32,000 bases of DNA from contig NBVN01000002.1 of the NCBI GenBank assembly GCA_003056265.1, positions 270,001-302,000 on the forward strand. Reading direction: 5' to 3'. The position numbers were made by a program, and so were the translations under genes. A model generated the notes under the pieces. The model ran no database searches, had not been told where the DNA came from, and saw nothing but the letters and a program-made list of their open reading frames with translations. Shown one piece after another: positions 16,166-31,472 of the stretch (within the stretch, counting starts at the first letter, position 1; every line of letters starts with the position of its first letter). The stretch is from Zestosphaera tikiterensis. GTDB taxonomy: Archaea > Thermoproteota > Thermoprotei_A > Sulfolobales > NBVN01.

Positions 16166-16239
16166 GCCGCCGTAGCTCAGCCGGGTAGAGCACCGGCCTT
16201 GTAAGCCGGGGGTCGCGGGTTCGAATCCCGCCGGCGGCT
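16166..16239 (+). tRNA. tRNA-Thr (anticodon UGU)
   Basis: Hand-folded cloverleaf. Acceptor GCCGCCG/CGGCGGC, anticodon stem CCGGC/GCCGG with loop CTTGTAA (anticodon TGT), and T-arm GCGGG-TTCGAATC-CCGC. No encoded CCA. Very GC-rich stems. Confidence 0.9.
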
Positions 16240-16269: not shown

Positions 16270-16307
16270 CATGAGTTCCCATTTAATGGAGGTTTCGGGA
16301 ACTCATG
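16270..16307. repeat. Perfect 11-bp inverted repeat spanning the integrase start codon
   Basis: CATGAGTTCCC (16270-16280) and GGGAACTCATG (16297-16307) are separated by 16 nt containing GGAGG. The right arm includes the integrase ATG (16305-16307). Confidence 0.8.
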
Positions 16308-17603
16308 GCGGAATTCAATTCGGAATTCGTGTCTGATGGTGATTGGTTTGTAAGTGTTAATGTTGATGCTGTTGATGATGAGGCTAGGCGTAGTATTTTA
16401 GAAGTTGTTAAGAATAAGTTGGGTTTTACTAAGGCGTGTGAGGTCTTAGGTATAGTTAAGTCGAGTTTACATAGGTATTTAAGTGGTGAGAGGAGGGTTC
16501 CTAATGAAGTTGTTAAGAATGCTTTGAAGTTTCTAACTAAGTCTGAGTTTGAGTCGATAGTTGGTGATTGGGGTAGGTTAAAAGCTTTAGGTGTTGTTAA
16601 GGAGGGGGGTTTAATAGATTATGGGTTAGCTCTTAAGATTTTAGCGTTAGCGTCTAAAGACGAGTATTTAAAAAATGCGATGCTTAAGTTTATAGTTCAA
16701 GAGTTTAGAGACGATTTAAGGAAGATGTTAGGGATAAGCTTAGCAGGCGTTAAGCTTGAATGGAGTGAAGACTTCGAACACTTCCTAATGGAGCGTAAGA
16801 AAAGAAGGAAAGTCAAGGATTTTGAAACGCTTAAGTACTACAAATCCATATTCACGAAATACCTGCAGGGTAAGGAGCTTAGTGAGCAGGTAATCGATTA
16901 CGTTGTTAACCATAAAAATAAATGGCTTAGAAACGTGTTCAGACACTACATACAATACCTATATTACAAACGTAGGATAAGCCCAGAAACGTTCGGGTGG
17001 GTAATGGAGGTAGTTCCTTCAAGAAGCTATAAACTTGACGTTAGACCATATCAAATAAGCTTGGAGGAAGTTAAGAAAACGCTGAAGTTCCTTAAAATCA
17101 ATCATCAAACGTATTACGTAGTCTATAGGGTAATGCTTGAGTCGGGTGCTAGGTTTGAACACGTGTTAAAAATGATTAAAGAATGGGACCCTGACGAAGT
17201 AATTGAAATACCTAACGTAGGTATTGAAAGCAGTAGGCTAGTATGCTTTGAAGATAGCGACTTCTGTCGATACTACATGGGATTAAAAGGCTCTGAAAAA
17301 CCCTGCGAGTGGATATACTTCAGCATAGAGACGCTAGATATGCTTGAAGAAATAGCTCCAACACATATAAACAGATCACCAATAACTAAATACGCTAAAA
17401 GGCACGAACTAATACTACCTAAATACATGAGAAAAATAGCTTGGAGGTTAATGATTAAAACAATACCTAGGGAAGTCGCTAGATTCATACAGTCTAGATT
17501 TGGAGAATTGAGAATATCTGAGGCTAGATATGAAGATCTGCTAAGTGAAGCAGACGAATCTTATCTAAAATACCTTGAACATCTTAAGCAGTTAACACTA
17601 TAG
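16305..17603 (+). CDS. Tyrosine-recombinase-type integrase (archaeal, intact pNOB8-type-like) with N-terminal HTH
   Basis: 432 aa. HTH-like TKACEVLGIVKSSLHRYLSG. The C-terminal half has candidate catalytic residues ESGAR(FEH), YMRKIAWR and IQSRFG...SEARY, an R..xxR..R..Y pattern as in archaeal integrases. It is adjacent to a tRNA gene. Confidence 0.7.
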   Translation: MAEFNSEFVSDGDWFVSVNVDAVDDEARRSILEVVKNKLGFTKACEVLGIVKSSLHRYLSGERRVPNEVVKNALKFLTKSEFESIVGDWGRLKALGVVKEGGLIDYGLALKILALASKDEYLKNAMLKFIVQEFRDDLRKMLGISLAGVKLEWSEDFEHFLMERKKRRKVKDFETLKYYKSIFTKYLQGKELSEQVIDYVVNHKNKWLRNVFRHYIQYLYYKRRISPETFGWVMEVVPSRSYKLDVRPYQISLEEVKKTLKFLKINHQTYYVVYRVMLESGARFEHVLKMIKEWDPDEVIEIPNVGIESSRLVCFEDSDFCRYYMGLKGSEKPCEWIYFSIETLDMLEEIAPTHINRSPITKYAKRHELILPKYMRKIAWRLMIKTIPREVARFIQSRFGELRISEARYEDLLSEADESYLKYLEHLKQLTL

Positions 17604-18067: not shown

Positions 18068-18223
18068 ATGCCAATACTAGCCACAACCAGGGTTGGAAGA
18101 TACTTTAGAACAACAATACCAAGAGAAGTTAGAAAAATTCTAGATATAAACGAGGATGAAGTTATTGAGCGGATATTTGAAGATGGTAAAATTGTTATTA
18201 GAAAGAGTGGGAGAAATGGTTAA
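18068..18223 (+). CDS. AbrB/SpoVT-domain protein (antitoxin-like), 51 aa
   Basis: Below the track cutoff; my translation is MPILATTRVGRYFRTTIPREVRKILDINEDEVIERIFEDGKIVIRKSGRNG. TTIPxEVRKxL is the AbrB-fold swapped-hairpin signature. Confidence 0.55.
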   Translation: MPILATTRVGRYFRTTIPREVRKILDINEDEVIERIFEDGKIVIRKSGRNG

Positions 18224-18418
18224 ATGCCCTTACTGCGGCTACGAATCAAACATAAACGAGTTTAAAACTCCTTAGAGATCCTTGGAGGTTTAGGTTCTAC
18301 AGAGTTAGGATGCTCCAATGCCCTAAATGTCATGGAGTATTTATTCAACCATTATTATGGGCTGTCTTCAAAGGATAAGGAGATTAAGTTCACAATTAAA
18401 GTAAAGCCTAGGAAATGA
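18216..18418 (+). pseudogene. Frameshifted zinc-ribbon gene remnant
   Basis: Frame 0 reads MVKCPYCGYESNINEFKTP-stop (stop at 18273). Frame +1 continues from the A-run at 18264-18267 as LLRDPWRFRFYRVRMLQCPKCHGVF. Frame +2 continues from about 18344 as FNHYYGLSSKDKEIKFTIKVKPRK-stop. The two CxxC halves of one ribbon lie in different frames, and the start overlaps the AbrB stop (ATGGTTAA). Confidence 0.45.
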
Positions 18419-18850: not shown

Positions 18851-19194
18851 AGGGGAAACCTCCAACCATTCTGGGACTAAGCTTTAATAAAGCTGAGGAC
18901 AAGGCAGCTATCGTTAAAAGCTACTTAGCATACGGAACGGTTTCACTTGTGACACTCTATTTGGCAACCCTGGCTGAAGCATATATTATATAGGGTAGCT
19001 GACGTCGGAATATAATATGCACTAAAGGGAACAAAATGACTTAGTGAATATTTTCGGGGGTTATAGCTACTGGAAGAAGCACATCATTAGCGAAAACTAC
19101 CTTATACAGGTCGCTCAGCAAAACCTAAGTCAAGCCCTCCAGCACTAGAGGAAAGCGGATCCATACCGTATCTCATCATCTCTCATCACTCATT

Positions 19195-19395
19195 TCATTC
19201 ATTTTTTATCTCTCTCCGTAATTCATCAGATATGAGGGATTTTTCAGCAAGCCAAGTAAGCACTATACTCCTCACCAGCTCAGCATCATCACTGCCCATA
19301 ATGCCTCTCAGCCTTTCTATAAGTTTCCATTGTTTATCGGTAAATGTCACTTGCACTCTTTTTGCTTTTTCTTTGGCTTCTTTGCTATGTTTCAA
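19195..19395 (-). CDS. Ribbon-helix-helix (CopG/MetJ-like) DNA-binding protein
   Basis: 66 aa, TTG start. KRVQVTFTDKQWKLIERL (beta-strand plus helix 1), then GSDDAELVRSIVLTWL (helix 2). Divergent from the helicase operon. Confidence 0.65.
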   Translation of the reverse strand: MKHSKEAKEKAKRVQVTFTDKQWKLIERLRGIMGSDDAELVRSIVLTWLAEKSLISDELRREIKNE

Positions 19396-19481: not shown

Positions 19482-22400
19482 TTGATTGTGTCTTACGGTA
19501 ACCCGAAACTGTATGAGGAGCTAGCTCACCACGTCATAGAGTACTTGAAGAGCAGATATCATACTGAGGCGCCACACATATCTCTTTTATCGCCTGAATA
19601 CACCGTAGTGGCAAAAATTAAGTCATATACGCCTCGACCAACGCTAGGGGTGCGACCTGAAGAAGATGAGGATGAATTCATTCCTGAGGTTCTTGCAGAA
19701 CTTCTAGACCCCACAAGAACTACAGGTCATGCTACGCACGGCGTTGAAGCTACATTCAGAGACTTTACAACTAATTCAGAAGTAGCTATGGAGACAGTAT
19801 TCTACATTAGAAAAGCTCCCCCTGTAGAGTTTAAGAAAGTAACTATAAATGCTAAGCTAAACGGAGACAAGCTTGGAGTAAAGCTTACTGTTGAGGATGA
19901 TGATCAAGGGGCAAAAATCTATGAATCTGAATGGCGTTATATAGAGTTAAAGCAGGGTCAGTTGCAGGCGATTTTTGCTTTTGGATGGCCCGACATAGTT
20001 AAAGAAGCTACCGACATAATTTCAGGGGCGCTGTATCCAGGTGCTGAGACAGTAGAGTTTACAGACCTAAATACTATTGAAGCACTCTCTACTGCGGAGC
20101 TTACTAAAAACAACGAAAGATTCTTCTTTTTACCTCCACTTAGTAAAAAGAGGTATGCAGACTCCGTGAATTATTTCGCTGTCCAGAACTTTTTATACGA
20201 AGTTAAGGTCGCAAAGAAAGGCGACGAATTAAAGGTTACTCTAATCTTAAGGTATATAGCTCCTTCTTTAATTAGTAGAAATACCTCGAAATGCGTTCGA
20301 GTTGGTGAGGAGCTAGGCTTCCCTACGTATGTTTATATAGGAGATCATAGGGATAGGTGGAGCATCCACCACCTGATGGAAGTTGAAAGTAGGCTCTGCT
20401 GGAAGAACGCACAACCTGATTGGAGGTGGAAACGGACGTTAAATAATCGACAGTATTCTGGCCTTCACAACTTAATACCTATAGGTGCTTTAGCTGTAGA
20501 GGATAGCGACTATAATTCAACTAACAATTGCCTATTGCTCAGGGATTGGCATGTAGAGGCAGAGATGATATATCCGATAAAAAAGAGCAAGAACAGCGTC
20601 GAGGAGTCCTTTCAAAAAATAGAGAAAGCAATCATTCAGGATGCTAAGTCTAGAGGGGTAAAAATAGACGAAGAAGCTTTAAGGAAAGCTTTTAAAATTG
20701 TTTTAAAAGCTTTTAAAGAGTCGTATCCTAGAATAACACATCTCTATGAATTTCAGGAAAAGGCACTTTACGAAGGCTTGAAAGCTTTAATTGCTGGTGA
20801 TCATAAAGCCTTTGTCCTACAAGCTAGGACTGCTGGCGGAAAAACCCTAGCGTTTCTATTACCAATACTAACTTATGTAGTTTACGCGAAGCTTACCCGA
20901 GTAAGTAAAGAAGGAGTAAAAACCATATTCTTCTATCCAACTATAGCTCTTCAAAACGATCAGGCATCAACCATTTTCAGAATGCTTTGGCACATAAATC
21001 TAGATTTACACCCTGAGACCATATCTCTCGGGTTGTTACACCGTTATATACCTAAAAGATCCGAAACAGCTGAAGAGCGGGAGCTACGGCTAAGGTGCCC
21101 ACTCTGCGGACATAGGTTATTAATATCTTGGAAATCCATTCCAGACACAAACGTGAATAAAGAAGTAATTATGTGTAGCAATGACTCATGTCGGATAAAT
21201 AATCCAGACAGCTTTGAAGGGAAACTTCTACAAGCGACGATTAAGGCTTCTCGTGATGCTATATATTCAAGTCCTCCAGATTTACTCATCGCCAATCCAG
21301 ACATAATTAACGCTAGACTTACCTTAATGGGAAGCGAGGATCCAGCTTCTCTTGCTATACTAGGCAAACATGTCTTTGTTTGTGCCACATGTGGTGCACT
21401 TTATGATAGAGATCTAGGTTCCCGTCCATTAAAGTGCAACGTATGTAAATCAAAAAATATCCGTAGCGTACGTTTTACATATCCTGAAATAATCGTAATC
21501 GACGAAGCTCATCTACTTCGAGGTGCCTTTGGGGCTCAAGTTGCTCATGTTTTAACCAGGCTCGAACAAGTTATAAGAAGGTTAAACGGGCTTTCAGAGA
21601 GCTGGAGACCGACCTACTTTATCTCTAGTGCCACACTCAACAACCCTAAATCAAGGACTCGAGAACTTATAGCTACAGACTTAGATGGCATTATCGAGAT
21701 TTCTGCCGAACCCGAATTAGAGCAAGCCGAACCAACTCTAAGGATTCACACATTCCTTATGCCTAAGCTTTATTCTCCAGAAGCGACAGCATCGAGGATA
21801 GTTGAAGCTATATATTCAGAAGCGTCGGCTCTAGCTGATGTTTATAAAGTGAAATATGCCAAACAGCTAAAAGATCTTCGCGAAAAGATGTTTGGTGATA
21901 GGAACCCCGCTACATTAGTATTTGTTAACAAAATATCTGAAGCTAACGAGCTTTTAAGTCATATAAAGACTTTTGCTCGTGATACGAGAAGTGACGGACA
22001 CACTACAGACTACAGGGACGATAGAGTACGTGTAGAAGATGAATTTAGCAGAGGAAACTTAGACATTATAGTAGCTACGAGCGGACTCGAAGTAGGAGTT
22101 GATTTCGACAGGGTAGACATAGGAATAATCTACGGCATGCCATTCTATATTTCGGATTATACGCAAAGAATCGGCAGGATAGGTCGGCGTCAACATTGCG
22201 TAATATTTAACGTCTTTATGCCAGACAAACCTATAGATCATTTTTACTATAAAAACTGGAAGATTCTCTCCGACGGATCTTTAAGAGATATACACATGAG
22301 ATCTGAAGCTTATAGAATCGACAGGGAAAATCCAGAAGCCATTAGCAGGGCTGCACAGAGAGCTGTTCTTGACGTAATATCTACGATGAACAATACAGAC

Positions 22401-22844
22401 ACGTTCCTTTACAAGTCAATAATGGCACAAAATAAGAAATTTGAACAGGAAATAATGGATATATTGAACGTTGTAGAGTCAGAGCTAACAAAGCATCTTC
22501 CACTAGCATTGAGGATCAGCGACGTTGCGCGAGCCATATCTATAGCGAGGCAGTTCATAGACGAGATAAGAAACGCTGTTAAAATCCACGGAAATCTGAT
22601 TAAAGCTATAAATGAGGGTCTTGGGGCCTCACTAAGTCAGCTTTCTAGTTTAAGGACGCTAGAACCTGAGACAAAATACAAATTCGAGCCTGTCGGTGAA
22701 GAGAGAAGTAGGAACTTGCTGTATTCTTTTAGGCACTGCCTTCCAGGTCAGGTAATAAGTTATAGAGGCAACTTCTACGCTGTAGAAATGTTCTCAGGCG
22801 AGTCTTTGCGCCTGTTTCAGACACGAGGGGATCGAGATGAGTAG
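19482..22844 (+). CDS. Large SF2 DExH helicase (DrmA/MrfA-YprA-like) with unknown N-terminal domain and Zn-ribbon insertions
   Basis: 1120 aa. Motif I ARTAGGKTLAF (aa 448-458), Ia YPTIALQNDQ, PPDLLIANPDII (YprA-like), II VIDEAHLL (DEAH at 21501-21512), III SSAT, V IVATSGLEVGVDF and VI QRIGRIGRR. Two Cys4 ribbons lie at aa 539-570 and 634-655. Aa 1-420 have no recognisable motif. Confidence 0.85.
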   Translation: MIVSYGNPKLYEELAHHVIEYLKSRYHTEAPHISLLSPEYTVVAKIKSYTPRPTLGVRPEEDEDEFIPEVLAELLDPTRTTGHATHGVEATFRDFTTNSEVAMETVFYIRKAPPVEFKKVTINAKLNGDKLGVKLTVEDDDQGAKIYESEWRYIELKQGQLQAIFAFGWPDIVKEATDIISGALYPGAETVEFTDLNTIEALSTAELTKNNERFFFLPPLSKKRYADSVNYFAVQNFLYEVKVAKKGDELKVTLILRYIAPSLISRNTSKCVRVGEELGFPTYVYIGDHRDRWSIHHLMEVESRLCWKNAQPDWRWKRTLNNRQYSGLHNLIPIGALAVEDSDYNSTNNCLLLRDWHVEAEMIYPIKKSKNSVEESFQKIEKAIIQDAKSRGVKIDEEALRKAFKIVLKAFKESYPRITHLYEFQEKALYEGLKALIAGDHKAFVLQARTAGGKTLAFLLPILTYVVYAKLTRVSKEGVKTIFFYPTIALQNDQASTIFRMLWHINLDLHPETISLGLLHRYIPKRSETAEERELRLRCPLCGHRLLISWKSIPDTNVNKEVIMCSNDSCRINNPDSFEGKLLQATIKASRDAIYSSPPDLLIANPDIINARLTLMGSEDPASLAILGKHVFVCATCGALYDRDLGSRPLKCNVCKSKNIRSVRFTYPEIIVIDEAHLLRGAFGAQVAHVLTRLEQVIRRLNGLSESWRPTYFISSATLNNPKSRTRELIATDLDGIIEISAEPELEQAEPTLRIHTFLMPKLYSPEATASRIVEAIYSEASALADVYKVKYAKQLKDLREKMFGDRNPATLVFVNKISEANELLSHIKTFARDTRSDGHTTDYRDDRVRVEDEFSRGNLDIIVATSGLEVGVDFDRVDIGIIYGMPFYISDYTQRIGRIGRRQHCVIFNVFMPDKPIDHFYYKNWKILSDGSLRDIHMRSEAYRIDRENPEAISRAAQRAVLDVISTMNNTDTFLYKSIMAQNKKFEQEIMDILNVVESELTKHLPLALRISDVARAISIARQFIDEIRNAVKIHGNLIKAINEGLGASLSQLSSLRTLEPETKYKFEPVGEERSRNLLYSFRHCLPGQVISYRGNFYAVEMFSGESLRLFQTRGDRDE

Positions 22845-24081
22845 TTACGCACCTTCTCAGCGATTAATTGAAAGGTTGGCGGAGGAAATTAGAGTAGCAG
22901 GTCAACAACATTTGATGTTACCCAACGATGCTGAAATGATCGCAAGGGCCTTGCTGGGTCACGACAGGACTCTCAGAGCGGAGCTTCTTATTCCAACGCA
23001 AGTAGTAGCTAACGTTAAAACTCGGTTAGCAGATCTAGAATATGTACGATGTGTCCGTTGTGGGCAGGTATATAACGCTAAAACCCAACCAAGCCTACTG
23101 AAAAATTCTAAGTGCCCCAAATGTGGGGGTTCTTTAGTAGCAGTACCTCTTTGGGTAATAACCGCTAGGAGTGTCAAACCTGCTAATAGGAGGATTACAC
23201 CTAATCAGGGAATAGAACTAACAGTTTCTATAGAGACTTATACAAAAACACACATTCGTAATCGAAATGCGGTAGTGCCCAAGCAAATCCATATAGGTGA
23301 CAGATCCAGACCTATAGCTACTCTAGAGTTTATATATGGCTTTGAATCCCACAATCCTGCCCCTGTTCATAAACACAAGGTGTTCAAATATATGTTGGCA
23401 CTTATGCCAAGCGAATCTATAACAAAGCCCGTGACAATAACTGCATTTGCTTACAACGATTCCACGTGCGTGGAAGTAAATACAACAACAGGATTCTTCT
23501 CTGGAGTATCAAAAGTCCTTTACTGCAAAAATATGGAAATACTGCAAGCAACTCTACTTCACAAAGCAGGTCATCAGAGAAGTAGTAGCAGATCTCGAGT
23601 TGCTGTCCTTGATATGTCGCAGTCTCAGCTTGGTGGAGCCGTAGTTAGAATACCCGTAAGGTATATCCAGACTCAAGGTCTAGTTGTAAAGGTTGATGAG
23701 AATAGTGTGAAGAATGTCCTTAAGGAGCTTGATTATAGTGATGACGATGTATGGATTGCTCTCCATACAATAAGCCATGCGTTTCTCGTCAGTTTACCCC
23801 AGATAACAGGACTTGAAGGGGCAGATTTTGGAGAAGCCATAAGTACAAGTACGAAGGAGATTGCCGTTTATGATAACTCCTTTGGAGGGCTAGGCGGGAT
23901 AGAGGGTATTGTTGACACGTCTGGTGGTGTTTTAACGCCTAACTATGAATGGAGTGTGAGGGAGTCGTATAAATGTCCGCTCGCTTGTACTAAAGCGTGC
24001 AAGGCTTGTCTGTTTACGGACTCGTGTTTCATGTTGAATTGGCGCCTTGACAGAAGAATTTTGGAGAGGCTGGGGTGGTAG
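22837..24081 (+). CDS. DUF1998 (MrfA-type Zn-binding domain) protein, DrmB-like
   Basis: 414 aa. ATG overlaps the helicase stop by 8 nt (ATGAGTAG). The C-terminal LHTISHAF...VYDNSFGGLGGIEGI...CPLACTKACKACLFTDSC...NWRLDR matches the DUF1998 hallmark. An extra N-terminal ribbon reads CVRCG...CPKCGG. Confidence 0.8.
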   Translation: MSSYAPSQRLIERLAEEIRVAGQQHLMLPNDAEMIARALLGHDRTLRAELLIPTQVVANVKTRLADLEYVRCVRCGQVYNAKTQPSLLKNSKCPKCGGSLVAVPLWVITARSVKPANRRITPNQGIELTVSIETYTKTHIRNRNAVVPKQIHIGDRSRPIATLEFIYGFESHNPAPVHKHKVFKYMLALMPSESITKPVTITAFAYNDSTCVEVNTTTGFFSGVSKVLYCKNMEILQATLLHKAGHQRSSSRSRVAVLDMSQSQLGGAVVRIPVRYIQTQGLVVKVDENSVKNVLKELDYSDDDVWIALHTISHAFLVSLPQITGLEGADFGEAISTSTKEIAVYDNSFGGLGGIEGIVDTSGGVLTPNYEWSVRESYKCPLACTKACKACLFTDSCFMLNWRLDRRILERLGW

Positions 24082-24883
24082 GACGAGCGTAGAAGTCGAA
24101 AGCGTGAGCAGAAAGATAGTAGAGCTCTTAAGTGAAGAGAAGCGGCCTCTAACTACGGAGTACATCTGCCTTAAGTTAAACATCGCAAAATCTTTAGCGT
24201 CTTCAGCCTTATATAAACTTCTGAGAGAGGGAATCGTAGAAAGGGTTTACACCGAGACGTACGATCCTACACAGCCATTTGACACCGCAATGTGGGTGCT
24301 TAAGGAAGGGGTAAAACAAGCTGAAGGAGCTATAAAACCTGCTGAGGGAATCGAATCTAAACATACAAAGCTAGTCCTTTCCATGCCTCTCTCGATGCAC
24401 AGTTTAAGGGCAGACCTGCTAAACAGGTTTGAGGCCCTCGATCTTCACGACGCGTACACCCACGTAATTGAAATGGCTAGGCAGGAACTGAAGATAATGT
24501 GCCCTGTAATTGACGCATATGCTCTATATCCGTTAATAAGTAAAATATTAAGTTCAAAAGGGCTGAAAATCCGAGTTCTTACAGAGATAGGTAAGAGCAG
24601 AGACGTCATGCACCTCTTGGAGTCCTTAGGAAGTAAAAGCATTGAGGTGAAAAACGCTGAGAAAACAGTGAGATATGAAGGTTATGAAAGAAAAGCGTTC
24701 GGAATCCACGCTAAATTAGTCATAGCTGATAATGAGGTTGCTCTTATAGGTAGCTTCAACTTATCTAGGCACCACTACTTAGTTAATTTCGACATAGGCT
24801 TCTTAATATACGATCAAGCAGTTGTAAACAAGCTTTCTCTAATATTCGAAGAGATGTGGAACTATGTCTCTGCCACCGATTGA
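24047..24883 (+). CDS. wHTH-fused phospholipase-D-family (single HKD) nuclease, DrmC-like
   Basis: 278 aa. HAKLVIADNEVALIGSFNLS at aa 221-240 (24707-24766) is the HxK(x4)D(x6)GSxN motif. The N-terminal KIVELLSEEKRPLTTEYICLKLNIAKSLASSALYKLLREGIVERV looks like a winged helix. The start is uncertain: TTG at 24047 overlaps the upstream gene, and a GTG near 24104 is an alternative. Confidence 0.8.
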   Translation: MTEEFWRGWGGRTSVEVESVSRKIVELLSEEKRPLTTEYICLKLNIAKSLASSALYKLLREGIVERVYTETYDPTQPFDTAMWVLKEGVKQAEGAIKPAEGIESKHTKLVLSMPLSMHSLRADLLNRFEALDLHDAYTHVIEMARQELKIMCPVIDAYALYPLISKILSSKGLKIRVLTEIGKSRDVMHLLESLGSKSIEVKNAEKTVRYEGYERKAFGIHAKLVIADNEVALIGSFNLSRHHYLVNFDIGFLIYDQAVVNKLSLIFEEMWNYVSATD

Positions 24884-26033
24884 CCTGTCCTTATTCGATA
24901 AGAAGGTAAGGGGCAAGATAAGGCTCGCCGTTTCTATGGGCCAACTCCTGCATTTTATATACCTAGCCGTGAAAAACTTCCCCGATCGTGTGGCTAAATA
25001 CAGCTCATTTTTACAGCTGATAAACGATAAAGAATTCGCTGCTGAAGTGCTGAGAAAAGAAAGCAGATTCGGCGGACGCGGAGGAAGCCCCTTAAAATAC
25101 CTTGGACTTGTTAACGCCATTGCTCAGAGAGGCTACTCACGCCTCTTAGAGTTGGCGGATATTGTTTGGGATTTAACCGTATATCACAGCAGAATAGATC
25201 CTAAAACCTTGTTTAACAATATAGTTGGTCTAGCTTCAGAAAAGCACTACTCCTTATTAGATGAAATGCGGATTCACGGCAAAGCCACCTATAAGCGAAG
25301 CCCGTTTATAATGAACATCAGGCATTATAACTACATTACCGTGGAGGTGGAATACGGTGGCAGGAGCGAAGCTCTCGCAAAAACGTTAATATATATAGGT
25401 TCGTTGGCGGATACCAATGAATCTTTAGGTCTTTTTGCAAGGTTTTCAGTGCGAAGCATAGATGCTGAGCACGTAGTGAGGAAGCAGGAGGAGGGCTGTG
25501 CTCATAGGCTGATTAAAACGTTCAGACTCTATCCAACCGTTTTAAGGATGCAGAGACTCTCTTATAAAAGAGTGTACCCTGTGCAAAATCAGAGAAGCGA
25601 AGTTCTTAACATGCTGTCCGAGCTTTTCATAGATGATAAAAAGTTTGCCTCGCTGATTAACATGGACGTCCCTGCTAATATATTGGCCATGGCTCCTTCG
25701 ATATCGCTAGGCGGGGGATTATGTTTCGCTACTGCTTTTAGGGGAGAACTTCTTGACTTTTTAGGAATAGAGAAAGAAGCTAAAATTAAAGTAGCTGACA
25801 CAGTAATTAAAGCCATCCCATCATACTATTCCGTTCTTGATTGTCAAAAAAGCCCTGGGGACTACGTCTTTATGGTTTTCCACCCCTTTACAGCCCCTAA
25901 GGTTGGATTAGTGGTGGCGACCTACTCAACAAACGTTTTAGGTAGTCTTAAGCCTAAAAGAAGAAATGTTTCATCCCTAGATAATCTATTCCCTAAAGTT
26001 GAGGAAGTAGCAAAACTCCCCTCCGAAACGTAA
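24864..26033 (+). CDS. Orphan protein, fourth gene of the helicase/DUF1998/PLD operon
   Basis: 389 aa. ATG overlaps the PLD gene end by 20 nt. No catalytic or nucleotide-binding motif recognised by eye. Confidence 0.6.
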   Translation: MSLPPIDLSLFDKKVRGKIRLAVSMGQLLHFIYLAVKNFPDRVAKYSSFLQLINDKEFAAEVLRKESRFGGRGGSPLKYLGLVNAIAQRGYSRLLELADIVWDLTVYHSRIDPKTLFNNIVGLASEKHYSLLDEMRIHGKATYKRSPFIMNIRHYNYITVEVEYGGRSEALAKTLIYIGSLADTNESLGLFARFSVRSIDAEHVVRKQEEGCAHRLIKTFRLYPTVLRMQRLSYKRVYPVQNQRSEVLNMLSELFIDDKKFASLINMDVPANILAMAPSISLGGGLCFATAFRGELLDFLGIEKEAKIKVADTVIKAIPSYYSVLDCQKSPGDYVFMVFHPFTAPKVGLVVATYSTNVLGSLKPKRRNVSSLDNLFPKVEEVAKLPSET

Positions 26034-27406: not shown

Positions 27407-27595
27407 TCTTTTCAACTACTTCAAAGCTTTCGTGACTAGCTCAGTAACTAGTTTTGCTTACTTTGTTAAGCTTATCAAGGAAAGCTAAACGAGTAGATCC
27501 TCAGACCTCAATAACCCTTAGGGAAGCTAATCACTTAGAAAATCTAATTGCTTAGGGGATCTAACGCATTAGAAAATCTACCCCTCGATAAGTGA

Positions 27596-29723: not shown

Positions 29724-31472
29724 TTACCTTATCTGTGGGAACAGGTAGTAGGCTAGGGTGGGCTCGCCTTGAGGGGTTCTTAGATTGAGGAGCACTGTTC
29801 CAGCGACAATCATGTAGAGAACTGTTGTGAACTCGTCACCATATTCTTTAGCCAGCTTGTCACCCTCTCCAGCAATCTTGTGTACAAGTGCGCTGTCGAT
29901 CCCGCTGAGGGCATCCACTGTTAAAACCAGCACGTCCACCCCGATTCTAGGTACCGGCACCACCCTAGATACGGCATTCGCGCTTCTCGCATTCGGGACT
30001 ATTACTACGAGGTACCTTGCTTCAGCAGCGCTTGGAACTTTGAGCTCTATCAGCTCTCTGAGCTTGTTTAGCGTGCTTGAGGATATGTAGCCTCTTCTAT
30101 CAGCTCTTAGTGCATGCACGACGAGGAATATTCTGTCGCTCCTAATATGTATGAAGTCTATCTGAGGCCCTCTTTTTCTCCTCCTTCCCTCCGATACGGC
30201 TCCCTGAGCCTCCTTGGAGTACGGCAGTTCCAGCCCGAGCGCCCTAATCGACTGATCCCTGTACACCTCGATCCCGCGATCCTGCCTGTAGACACCATGT
30301 TTTTGAAGTACTTGTTCAACTGCTTTGAGGATCGCATCCTTAACGATTTCTGGATCGGGTTGCGACATGCTTTGACTCCTGAGCTCTTCATAGAATTTCG
30401 AGAGCTTTTCTGCGAGCACCCTTATATTTCTGTCTCTTAGGAAGCCCAGCAGGAGCTCTGCTATGCCCAGTCCATTCAGTGATGCAACTGAATAGTTGGG
30501 GTAGGATAAGTAGCTACCGCCTTCGTGGACCTCAGCAATTATCCTCTCACTGAGGCTTGCTTTTGGAAGACTTGAAAGTGTGAGCACTGCAAGTCCGTGC
30601 TTATATTTTCTGACCTCTTCAAGCAGGCTGGAGCACTCGCCACCAGACGCGTTTGTAATGTAGAAATCAGCTATGCTTGCAATGACTTCGGCCAGCTCAT
30701 TGATGCGTTCAAGTCTGCGAAGCCTTGACCAGTATGCATCTAGGTTTACTATGCTTGCACCTCTGAACAGCTGGACGAATTTTCCCCTTGTGTAGCTGTT
30801 TCTAAACGCGCTCTCTATAGATTCCTCTGGGAACTCTCCGAAAAACATTTCAGCCCCAGGCGCCTCAGCAAGGCAGACCTTCAATATCTGAAGAGTTGTA
30901 GCTCTCTCAGCTGTAATCCGCTCACTCTGGAGGGCTAATATAAGCATGAACCTCCCAGCATACTTGTTTACCATAGGCACGAGCTTATCTCTTATATATT
31001 TGAGGGCTTCCTCTTCTGCTTCCGCAAGGTCGTCGAGTGCTAAGGCTATTCTGGCTGTCGGCGAGTTCTTGAGTGCGGTTTCAATCTTTTCGACAGTGCT
31101 CCTCAGAAAGTCTGCAGGTGCTCCCTCTTTTTTCATGCTGTTCTGACCTTCCCTGCCACCTTTTTCAGCGGTCTGCTCACCGAAGTTCACATATTCGAGC
31201 TTCCAAGAGCCTGAAAGATAGTGCTCTATGTACCTTATTACAAGAGTCTTTCCGCATCCTCTTCCGCCAAGGATCACAATAATGTTCTTGCCCAGCGCGC
31301 CCTCCCTAACCAGTGCCTGGAATATTGGGTTCTCGTCGAGTTTCTTCTTAAACATTTCCTTGATCTGCTGGAAGGATTGTCGCTTCGTCGCATCCTCCAG
31401 GAATTTGACTACCTTATCCAGCGTGCATACTCCACTGTCAGACACCACGGTTCCCACCCCCATATGTTTCAC
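29724..31472 (-). CDS. P-loop NTPase (AAA+/archaeal-ATPase-like) with long C-terminal region
   Basis: 582 aa. Walker A ILGGRGCGKTLV, candidate Walker B RIALALDDLAEAEEE, then LILALQSE. GTG start at 31472 or ATG at 31463. Overlaps the upstream ORF by about 26-35 nt. Confidence 0.75.
   Translation of the reverse strand: MKHMGVGTVVSDSGVCTLDKVVKFLEDATKRQSFQQIKEMFKKKLDENPIFQALVREGALGKNIIVILGGRGCGKTLVIRYIEHYLSGSWKLEYVNFGEQTAEKGGREGQNSMKKEGAPADFLRSTVEKIETALKNSPTARIALALDDLAEAEEEALKYIRDKLVPMVNKYAGRFMLILALQSERITAERATTLQILKVCLAEAPGAEMFFGEFPEESIESAFRNSYTRGKFVQLFRGASIVNLDAYWSRLRRLERINELAEVIASIADFYITNASGGECSSLLEEVRKYKHGLAVLTLSSLPKASLSERIIAEVHEGGSYLSYPNYSVASLNGLGIAELLLGFLRDRNIRVLAEKLSKFYEELRSQSMSQPDPEIVKDAILKAVEQVLQKHGVYRQDRGIEVYRDQSIRALGLELPYSKEAQGAVSEGRRRKRGPQIDFIHIRSDRIFLVVHALRADRRGYISSSTLNKLRELIELKVPSAAEARYLVVIVPNARSANAVSRVVPVPRIGVDVLVLTVDALSGIDSALVHKIAGEGDKLAKEYGDEFTTVLYMIVAGTVLLNLRTPQGEPTLAYYLFPQIR

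Follow-up and report, generated by a model that had tools for sequence, protein, structure and literature searches.

An undescribed protein family encoded by the fourth gene of a DISARM-like drmABC operon in Zestosphaera tikiterensis and related Thermoproteota

Background

What does the gene that follows drmA, drmB and drmC in the archaeon Zestosphaera tikiterensis encode, and is its product part of the defence system to which those three genes belong? The gene, here called X, lies in a stretch of 32,000 nucleotides (GenBank assembly GCA_003056265.1, contig NBVN01000002.1, positions 270,001 to 302,000, forward strand) that is referred to as the window and numbered from its first nucleotide. 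An initial annotation described X as an orphan, placed it where DISARM systems would have drmE or a methylase gene, and put it forward as a candidate new component, possibly a sensor, an adaptor or an antitoxin-like brake. The present analysis identifies X as an undescribed protein family within a variant of the known DISARM system, and the role proposed for it is that of a DNA-binding accessory subunit, which could act where DrmE acts in other systems.

How DISARM recognises foreign DNA is still an open question, as are the roles of DrmD and DrmE (PMC9142583). One preprint, citing Ofir 2018, states that class 2 DISARM needs, besides DrmA and DrmB, an additional essential protein of unknown function, DrmE, and that DrmC is dispensable (bioRxiv 10.1101/2021.12.28.474362). 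The YprA tree has been reported to contain 'many uncharacterized DISARM-like ... classes' (Bell et al. 2025); the clade that carries X is not described there, and a literature search found no paper that mentions X or a drmABC-X operon. Turnover of accessory genes is to be expected in DISARM-like systems.

X is a constant partner of drmABC

The open reading frame (ORF) of 389 codons is as first described, with its ATG exactly 20 nt inside the end of the phospholipase D-type nuclease gene drmC. It ends in a TAA codon (26031-26033), and 24864 is the earliest start codon available downstream of the preceding in-frame stop. In the alignment all homologues share the N-terminus M-S-x-P..DLS.F.K, and 24864 is therefore taken as the correct start. 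In the relatives the overlap with drmC is 14-35 nt, with the majority at 17-23 nt. The conservation of this overlap across the clade supports the earlier proposal that X is co-expressed with drmC; the two share a transcript, and their translation is coupled through the overlapping start. Comparison of X with its closest relative, that of locus L001, gives 0.22 nonsynonymous substitutions per site (dN) against 2.3 synonymous substitutions per site (dS), and the family is under purifying selection. Because 15 full-length homologues exist at 46-66% identity and dN is far below dS, X is regarded as a real gene and not a chance ORF.

Related loci were gathered with close and distant homologues of X and, independently, with a DrmB profile that was run on metagenomes and on a protein index. 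Loci without X could therefore have turned up. In the hidden Markov model (HMM) map, X lies directly after drmC, on the same strand and with an overlapping start, in all 30 contigs that extend beyond drmC; the three contigs that have no X each end within drmC. Among the recovered contigs no homologue of X was seen in any other gene context. When nine loci are compared in pairs, the identity values of X correlate with the values of DrmA (r 0.95), DrmB (r 0.95) and DrmC (r 0.92), and just at 0.52-0.55 with those of the methylase and the glycosylase that accompany the operon in relatives. X is an always-present and exclusive partner of this DrmABC clade and co-diverges with its three proteins. 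The initial annotation had proposed to check whether homologues always sit beside helicase, DUF1998 and nuclease genes, and in all 30 contigs X adjoins drmC. Given this synteny and the lack of any confident match to a known family, the proposal that X is a candidate new DISARM component stands; unrelated contexts were never seen.

Two of the related loci are damaged. In L025 (1-3445) drmA, drmB, drmC and X are all fragmented, and no methylase gene is present in the 2.9 kb downstream. In L021 (6207-7394) X is interrupted by a single in-frame stop. It seems that drmABC-X decays as one module.

The DISARM context itself is borne out by the genes upstream of X. PADLOC models match DrmA (PDLC02570, 9.4e-126 over 283-1109), DrmB (2e-39) and DrmC (5e-20), and all four genes of the operon are full length in the window, with their catalytic motifs intact. 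Pfam DEAD and Helicase_C also match DrmA, which scores far below the NCBIfam DrmA cut-off (72 bits against 950). DrmB, a separate gene immediately 3' of drmA, matches Pfam MZB at 2e-4, slightly under the gathering score, and its Cys cluster is invariant in the alignment. DrmC is matched by Pfam PLDc_2 at 1.7e-16, and its HKD residues are invariant; its residues 22-70 give weak but repeated matches to winged-helix families (IclR, ArsR, MarR, TrmB, Lrs14/Sta1).

X belongs to no described protein family

Among 5.8 billion protein clusters, a search with X returned the identical protein, recorded as 'hypothetical protein B7O98_02635 [Zestosphaera tikiterensis]', together with 14 further homologues at 46-66% identity, none of them annotated. 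The family grew to 21 representatives, with identity down to 26%, when 1.84 billion representative proteins were searched with an HMM; complete members are 375-410 aa, and a second profile search with a broader alignment found nothing outside the family. All named sources are metagenome-assembled genomes of Thermoproteota, namely Zestosphaera and Ca. Methanomethylicota and, by way of DrmB, also Thermofilaceae and Thermoprotei. The DrmB clade that accompanies X comprises 38 clusters among the 5.8 billion. The plasmid and phage collections searched by tblastn with X, and IMG/VR, gave no match. Neither X nor DrmB recovered a locus from the collection of species-representative genomes, although the source genome is public and matches both exactly; that collection appears to lack or mask the region, and the scans are uninformative on distribution. 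The word 'orphan' thus holds in the sense that X has no family assignment; with 21 representatives, it is not a singleton.

The X protein of the window has no match in Pfam, in NCBIfam (E<=1) or in PADLOC, which covers DrmE and DrmD. The 23 family members pooled gave merely scattered sub-threshold noise, including one spurious MTase_II match in PADLOC at E<=10. Searches of PDB sequences with X and with the family profile were likewise noise (E >= 0.06). Regular-expression searches of X for Walker A, HxK(x)4D, CxxC, DEAD/H, PD-(D/E)xK and N/DPPY motifs were all negative, and these, with the HMM scans, uphold the original statement that X has no Walker, HKD, PD-(D/E)xK, S-adenosylmethionine (SAM)-binding or zinc motif. 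There is no conserved FxGxG or (D/N)PPY motif, the sole 'FGGRG' sits in a non-conserved loop of low model confidence, and only one Cys, C287, is conserved. To the extent that such profiles reach, X belongs to no described protein family, those of DrmE, DrmD and the methylases included. Public records name X 'hypothetical', and present annotation tools would call the X loci merely incomplete DISARM.

Two simple origins were rejected. The idea that X is a duplicated piece of DrmA or DrmB was ruled out by hhalign, which gave a probability of 0.1 against the alignments of both. That X is a DNA methyltransferase was rejected on the lack of any methylase profile match to the window protein in Pfam, NCBIfam or PADLOC and of any SAM-binding or D/NPPY motif.

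Could X be an extremely diverged true DrmE that has shifted to the operon's 3' end and lost about half of its length? The setting is the same (DrmABC with a C5 methylase), the two proteins share the status of an extra protein of unknown function, and DISARM-like clades are very diverse (PMC12458937). However, none of the 23 members matches DrmE in PADLOC even at E<=10, and it is by DrmE HMMs that PADLOC defines type II DISARM (PMC9252829). There is no NCBIfam match at E<=1, and the position in the operon differs. X and DrmE were compared here through profile HMM scans (PADLOC, NCBIfam), and the PDB holds no structure of DrmE. A tblastn search of plasmids for comparison loci matched only class 1 loci of B. 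cereus with DrmA and none with DrmB. Descent of X from DrmE is considered very improbable.

Predicted structure, conserved residues and charge

From the 23 sequences, AlphaFold2 (AF2) gives a model of X with a pLDDT of 90.2 and a pTM of 0.91, and all five models agree. An alignment of 15 sequences had given a pLDDT of 48, and the model was rescued by the addition of eight distant members. The predicted protein has a helical N-terminal domain, followed by two OB-like barrels, with a helical linker between them, and by a short C-terminal region (Table 1). In the first barrel the elements are strands 155-163, 171-181 and 187-197, helix 198-209, and strands 213-216 and 220-223, which is the order b1-b2-b3-helix-b4-b5 of the OB fold. 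It is followed by a YPT.LRMQR motif that contains the invariant R228 and R231. The residues invariant across the family are W102, E161, D200, Q208, R228, R231, P341, P345 and R367.

The first 18 Foldseek matches in the PDB are all HIN-200 domains (p202, IFI16, MNDA, p204), with a best E of 7e-4 and a probability of 0.97. They are followed by SSB, RPA14/32, RMI1/2, Stn1/Ten1, Cdc13, TEBP and IF1, and in the viral library SSB, baculovirus LEF-3 and IF1 were found. Single barrels superpose on IF1, RPA14/32, RMI2 and Ten1 with a TM-score (TM) of 0.4-0.64 (0.44-0.64 for IF1, RPA and RMI); single-barrel matches with a root-mean-square deviation (rmsd) of 3.4 A reach a TM of 0.5-0.64. The assignment of the modelled barrels to the OB fold is reasonably safe. 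No sequence signal of an internal duplication was found when barrel 1 was compared with barrel 2 by hhalign.

X is a strongly basic protein, with an isoelectric point (pI) of 9.48; all but one of the 23 family members fall between 9.0 and 9.9. It is the most basic of the 20 ORFs of the window that were tested, the others being at or below 9.18 and the 16 background ORFs having a median of 7.68. DrmA, DrmB and DrmC have pI values of 7.0, 9.0 and 6.3. The positive charge of X is concentrated in the N-terminal domain and the first barrel.

The invariance of E161, D200, Q208, R228, R231 and R367 among members that share just 26% identity could be read as the mark of an enzyme. X would then have a new nuclease or DNA-modifying or DNA-processing activity on an OB-like scaffold, such as staphylococcal nuclease has, and as the true effector it could explain why DrmC is dispensable elsewhere in DISARM. 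Against this, X has no known catalytic motif and no family match, nucleases are absent from the best 50 Foldseek matches in the PDB and viral libraries alike, and the HKD site of the archaeal DrmC is intact, so that an effector nuclease is already there. It is quite unlikely that X is an enzyme of this kind.

The proteins that X resembles most in its predicted form are those of the mammalian HIN-200 family (AIM2, IFI16, p202, MNDA), with which the modelled protein would share two OB-like barrels and a helical linker; a basic character and an immune context are also common to both. In HIN domains two helices link the barrels, and DNA is bound through its backbone without sequence specificity. 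The order of secondary-structure elements in the AF2 model fits this plan of two OB folds plus linker, but the superposition of both barrels on HIN reaches a TM of only 0.3-0.4 on target length, with an rmsd of ~8 A. None of the 23 members matches the HIN family (PF02760) in Pfam at E<=1, and X has no pyrin domain; its helical N-terminal domain of 140 residues is unrelated. Convergence on the tandem-OB arrangement is the more likely explanation of the resemblance. The fit of the single barrels to SSB, RPA, RMI and Stn1-Ten1 is what a genuine OB fold could give, whether it binds nucleic acid or makes OB-OB contacts. X differs from the SSB-type proteins in having no sequence match to them and no acidic C-terminal tail as is typical of SSBs, and it is no housekeeping protein, being strictly tied to a defence operon on mobile islands.

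Proposed role of X

The reading preferred here, to which about an even chance of being right is given, is that X binds DNA without regard to sequence, as an accessory subunit of a class-2-like DISARM confined to hyperthermophilic Thermoproteota, and acts in the role of DrmE without being DrmE. The synteny, the co-divergence, the purifying selection, the small and confined families, the OB-like fold, the basic charge and the lack of any catalytic or nucleotide-binding motif were all counted in its favour, as was the reported need of class 2 DISARM for DrmE. The tandem barrels and the invariant, Arg-rich YPT.LRMQR segment would bind DNA, either single strands at ends or behind the DrmAB motor that exposes them, or duplex DNA along its backbone, as HIN domains do. 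The helical N-terminal domain would dock X onto DrmC, DrmAB or both. In this way X would recruit the helicase and nuclease to invading DNA that is not marked by the partner C5 methylase, or license them to act there, which is the role presumed for the non-homologous and essential DrmE in bacterial class 2 DISARM.

Several points weigh against this proposal. Binding of DNA by X is deduced from fold and charge; OB-like barrels also make contacts with proteins and RNA, and basic proteins are common in hyperthermophiles. The model comes from a shallow alignment of 23 sequences. The likeness to HIN domains would be one of architecture and not demonstrated homology, because the TM of the two-barrel superposition is low. 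Physical contact of X with DrmC or DrmAB is something that we infer, and the invariant E161, D200 and Q208 could mean a catalytic or metal site.

In a bolder proposal DISARM would have a third class, an archaeal one, with X as its sensor of invading DNA. Through the HIN-like tandem-OB module X would recognise DNA ends, or DNA that lacks methylation, and then permit the DrmAB motor and the nuclease DrmC to act, and X would be a prokaryotic counterpart of the mammalian AIM2/IFI16-type DNA sensors, whether by convergence or by very remote homology. This is a possibility worth keeping in mind, though a tentative one. If it is true, the intact locus without a methylase in the window would imply that self and non-self are not discriminated by methylation alone. 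Among the roles suggested at the outset, the predicted fold and the basic charge favour a DNA-binding sensor or adaptor, and there is no specific support for the brake, which is taken up below. The X clade could offer a compact alternative for the study of DISARM, X being small (389 aa), well predicted, probably DNA-binding and derived from thermophiles.

The modification genes of relatives and their loss in the window

The related loci carry a C5 cytosine methylase gene (PF00145), whose product is matched in PADLOC by MTase_II at 8e-217 and by DrmMII at 6e-43. It is present in every related locus with sufficient flanking DNA; the exception is the decayed L025, of which the upstream side was not recovered. 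The methylase gene is adjoined by a gene for a glycosylase of the HhH-GPD/4Fe-4S type, a MutY/EndoIII-like protein of 220-235 aa. This is matched by TIGR mutY at 1.5e-45, without the C-terminal domain of MutY, and by the PADLOC 'Type II nicking endonuclease' at 2e-43. The two genes vary in position, lying divergently upstream or downstream in either orientation. Methylase and glycosylase co-diverge (r 0.79), and either of them does so much less with DrmABC-X (0.38-0.55). The pair looks like an exchangeable modification module joined to a restriction module. The different subtypes, positions and orientations of the methylase suggest that the modification module, and presumably the methylated motif with it, has been exchanged.

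In the Mig.MthI/M.MthTI arrangement of thermophiles, a C5 methylase is accompanied by a MutY/EndoIII-like glycosylase that acts on T:G mismatches. In pairings of the Mig type the glycosylase repairs deaminated 5-methylcytosine and so counteracts deamination at high temperature. By analogy, the glycosylase of the relatives is probably a T:G repair enzyme of this type. The pair found beside drmABC-X in the relatives matches that of the Mig.MthI/MthTI-type module. The X loci differ from this module in that the restriction partner is a DISARM-like helicase and nuclease with X, not a Type II endonuclease, and the pair is missing from the window.

A small ORF that is 53-70 aa long in the relatives is found in eight loci, usually just upstream of the methylase gene, with a divergent promoter region between it and drmA. 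It is conserved in the window, with 59% identity in tblastn (5e-20) to the 53-aa ORF of L001. It has no match in Pfam or NCBIfam and is possibly ribbon-helix-helix-like. It could be a candidate controller of the divergent promoters that times the expression of the methylase against that of the restriction genes.

Of the modification genes themselves, the window retains only a remnant of the methylase gene, ~25 codons from its start that contain motif I (SAGGLDLGF). Nowhere in the 32 kb is there the remainder of this gene, another methylase match or the glycosylase. The window is a natural orphaned restriction half, in which the methylase has been lost and drmABC-X is intact. The suggestion that X stands in place of a methylase is overturned by the relatives, which have X and a C5 methylase together; the window has merely lost the latter. 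A restriction half without its methylase bears on the question of whether such systems are autoimmune.

It is at this point that a brake has to be considered, that is, an antitoxin-like immunity factor that keeps DrmC or DrmAB off self DNA and is released or displaced on infection. A built-in brake could make the preservation of the drmABC-X catalytic motifs after the loss of the methylase tolerable. Tight translational coupling such as joins X to the nuclease gene is typically seen in toxin-antitoxin-like pairs, and X is the fastest-evolving of the four proteins, its identities averaging 43% and those of DrmA, DrmB and DrmC 54-57%. Yet X has no likeness to antitoxin or immunity families, lone sub-threshold matches to RnlB and Imm63 among the 23 members being noise. 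At 389 aa, with a two-barrel fold of the nucleic-acid-binding type and a strong positive charge, it is unlike a typical small acidic DNA mimic or inhibitor. Class 1 DISARM, according to the preprint, tolerates the loss of its methylase without such a brake (bioRxiv 10.1101/2021.12.28.474362). A brake function for X is unlikely.

Relation to the known DISARM classes

DrmA, DrmB and DrmC, the core of DISARM, are all present in the window; a methylase is lacking there and present in the relatives. By its gene content the system is DISARM-like and nearest to class 2. It has in common with class 2 the DrmA helicase, DrmB (DUF1998) and DrmC (the phospholipase D-type protein), encoded in the same order by overlapping genes, a C5 methylase partner in the X loci that the DrmMII models match, and one additional protein of unknown function. 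The class 2 system of Bacillus paralicheniformis, reportedly described by Ofir et al. in 2018, is said to have the order DrmE-DrmA-DrmB-DrmC-DrmMII.

It is clear that there are differences from class 2 as well. No ORF of the operon matches the PADLOC model of DrmE, which puts the system outside class 2 as PADLOC defines it, and the extra protein is X, encoded after drmC, whereas drmE precedes drmA. The claim that X occupies the place of drmE therefore has to be narrowed, since the Bacillus gene is upstream of drmA; X would be a positional and functional analogue at most. The methylase of the X loci is nearer to ordinary Type II C5 enzymes and is always found with the MutY/Mig-like glycosylase, and a small divergent ORF precedes it. 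The hosts of the X clade are hyperthermophilic Thermoproteota. Most DrmC proteins have a Cas11-like four-helix bundle at the N-terminus (PMC12458937); those of the X clade have a winged helix instead. The class 1 proteins DrmD (an SNF2 helicase) and DrmMI (an N6-adenine methylase) are absent from the window and from all related loci, so that the system is not class 1 either. The X loci are a defined subtype confined to hyperthermophilic archaea, made up of the possibly ribbon-helix-helix-like ORF, the C5 methylase, the Mig-like glycosylase and DrmABC-X.

Table 1. Coordinates of gene X, of its operon and of associated features, in the window unless a related locus (L number) is given
Feature	Position	Strand	Description
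Gene X	24864..26033	+	389 aa, ATG start, uncharacterised; fourth gene of drmA-drmB-drmC-X
drmC/X overlap	24864..24883	+	20 nt, from the sequence; drmC stop TGA 24881-24883
X N-terminal domain, residues 1-140	24864..25283	+	Seven predicted helices, basic, pI 9.7; RGY..LLE...WDLT..H motif, invariant W102
X first OB-like barrel, residues 141-240	25284..25583	+	Predicted barrel ~155-223; basic; invariant E161, D200, Q208
X linker, residues 241-275	25584..25688	+	Two helices (243-265) in the AF2 model
X second OB-like barrel, residues 276-356	25689..25931	+	Predicted; GGLC..AFRGE and FHPFT.P motifs
X C-terminus, residues 357-389	25932..26030	+	Predicted short basic helices; KP.RRN (invariant R367), LFPK
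drmA	19482..22844	+	SF2 DEAH helicase with Cys-rich inserts; Walker A and DEAH intact (alignment)
drmB	22837..24081	+	DUF1998/MZB zinc-binding protein
drmC	24047..24883	+	Winged-helix N-terminal domain and single-HKD phospholipase D-type nuclease domain; H221, K223, D228 intact
C5 methylase remnant	19102..19179	-	Start of the gene
Small conserved ORF	19195..19395	-	Homologue of small ORFs in relatives
tRNA-Thr (TGT)	16166-16239	+	Left end of integrated element
Archaeal integrase gene	16305-17603	+	Pfam Phage_integr_3 1.6e-25; immediately after tRNA-Thr
Small ORF in relatives	L001 4241-4402; L004 3686-3880; L005 8942-9154; L006 2634-2831; L008 3782-3964; L028 1594-1773
C5 methylase subtypes in relatives	L033 8926-9963, L019 7921-9012 versus L001 2824-4236, L010 9361-10824		~345, 470 and 487 aa
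Glycosylase in relatives	L001 2075-2755; L010 8695-9378; L035 13265-14008		Always adjoins C5 methylase gene

The integrated element and other features of the window

The operon lies ~3 kb inside an integrated element that begins with a tRNA-Thr gene and an integrase gene. To the left of the tRNA gene are housekeeping genes, including those for a tRNA synthetase and an arginase-family protein, and near 28-29 kb of the window the G+C content climbs from ~0.40 to ~0.50. From the tRNA-Thr and integrase genes, the housekeeping genes on the left and the shift in G+C, it is concluded that the defence operon is carried as cargo by such an element. A search of the window for an attR copy of the tRNA-Thr 3' end was negative. 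An integrase gene also adjoins the locus in L001.

Some minor features remain to be listed. An ORF of 51 aa that is like AbrB/MazE-type antitoxins (Pfam MazE_antitoxin 3e-8) overlaps a 39-aa CxxC ORF at 18068-18275; no obvious toxin partner lies near the MazE-like ORF. To the right of the island, where G+C is higher, an ORF of 582 aa (29724-31472, minus strand) has a weak, sub-threshold signature of an ORC/Cdc6-like AAA ATPase. Downstream of the operon, a 17-nt unit (CTTAGGGAAGCTAATCA-like) is repeated in tandem in intergenic sequence at 27517-27580, in three imperfect copies.

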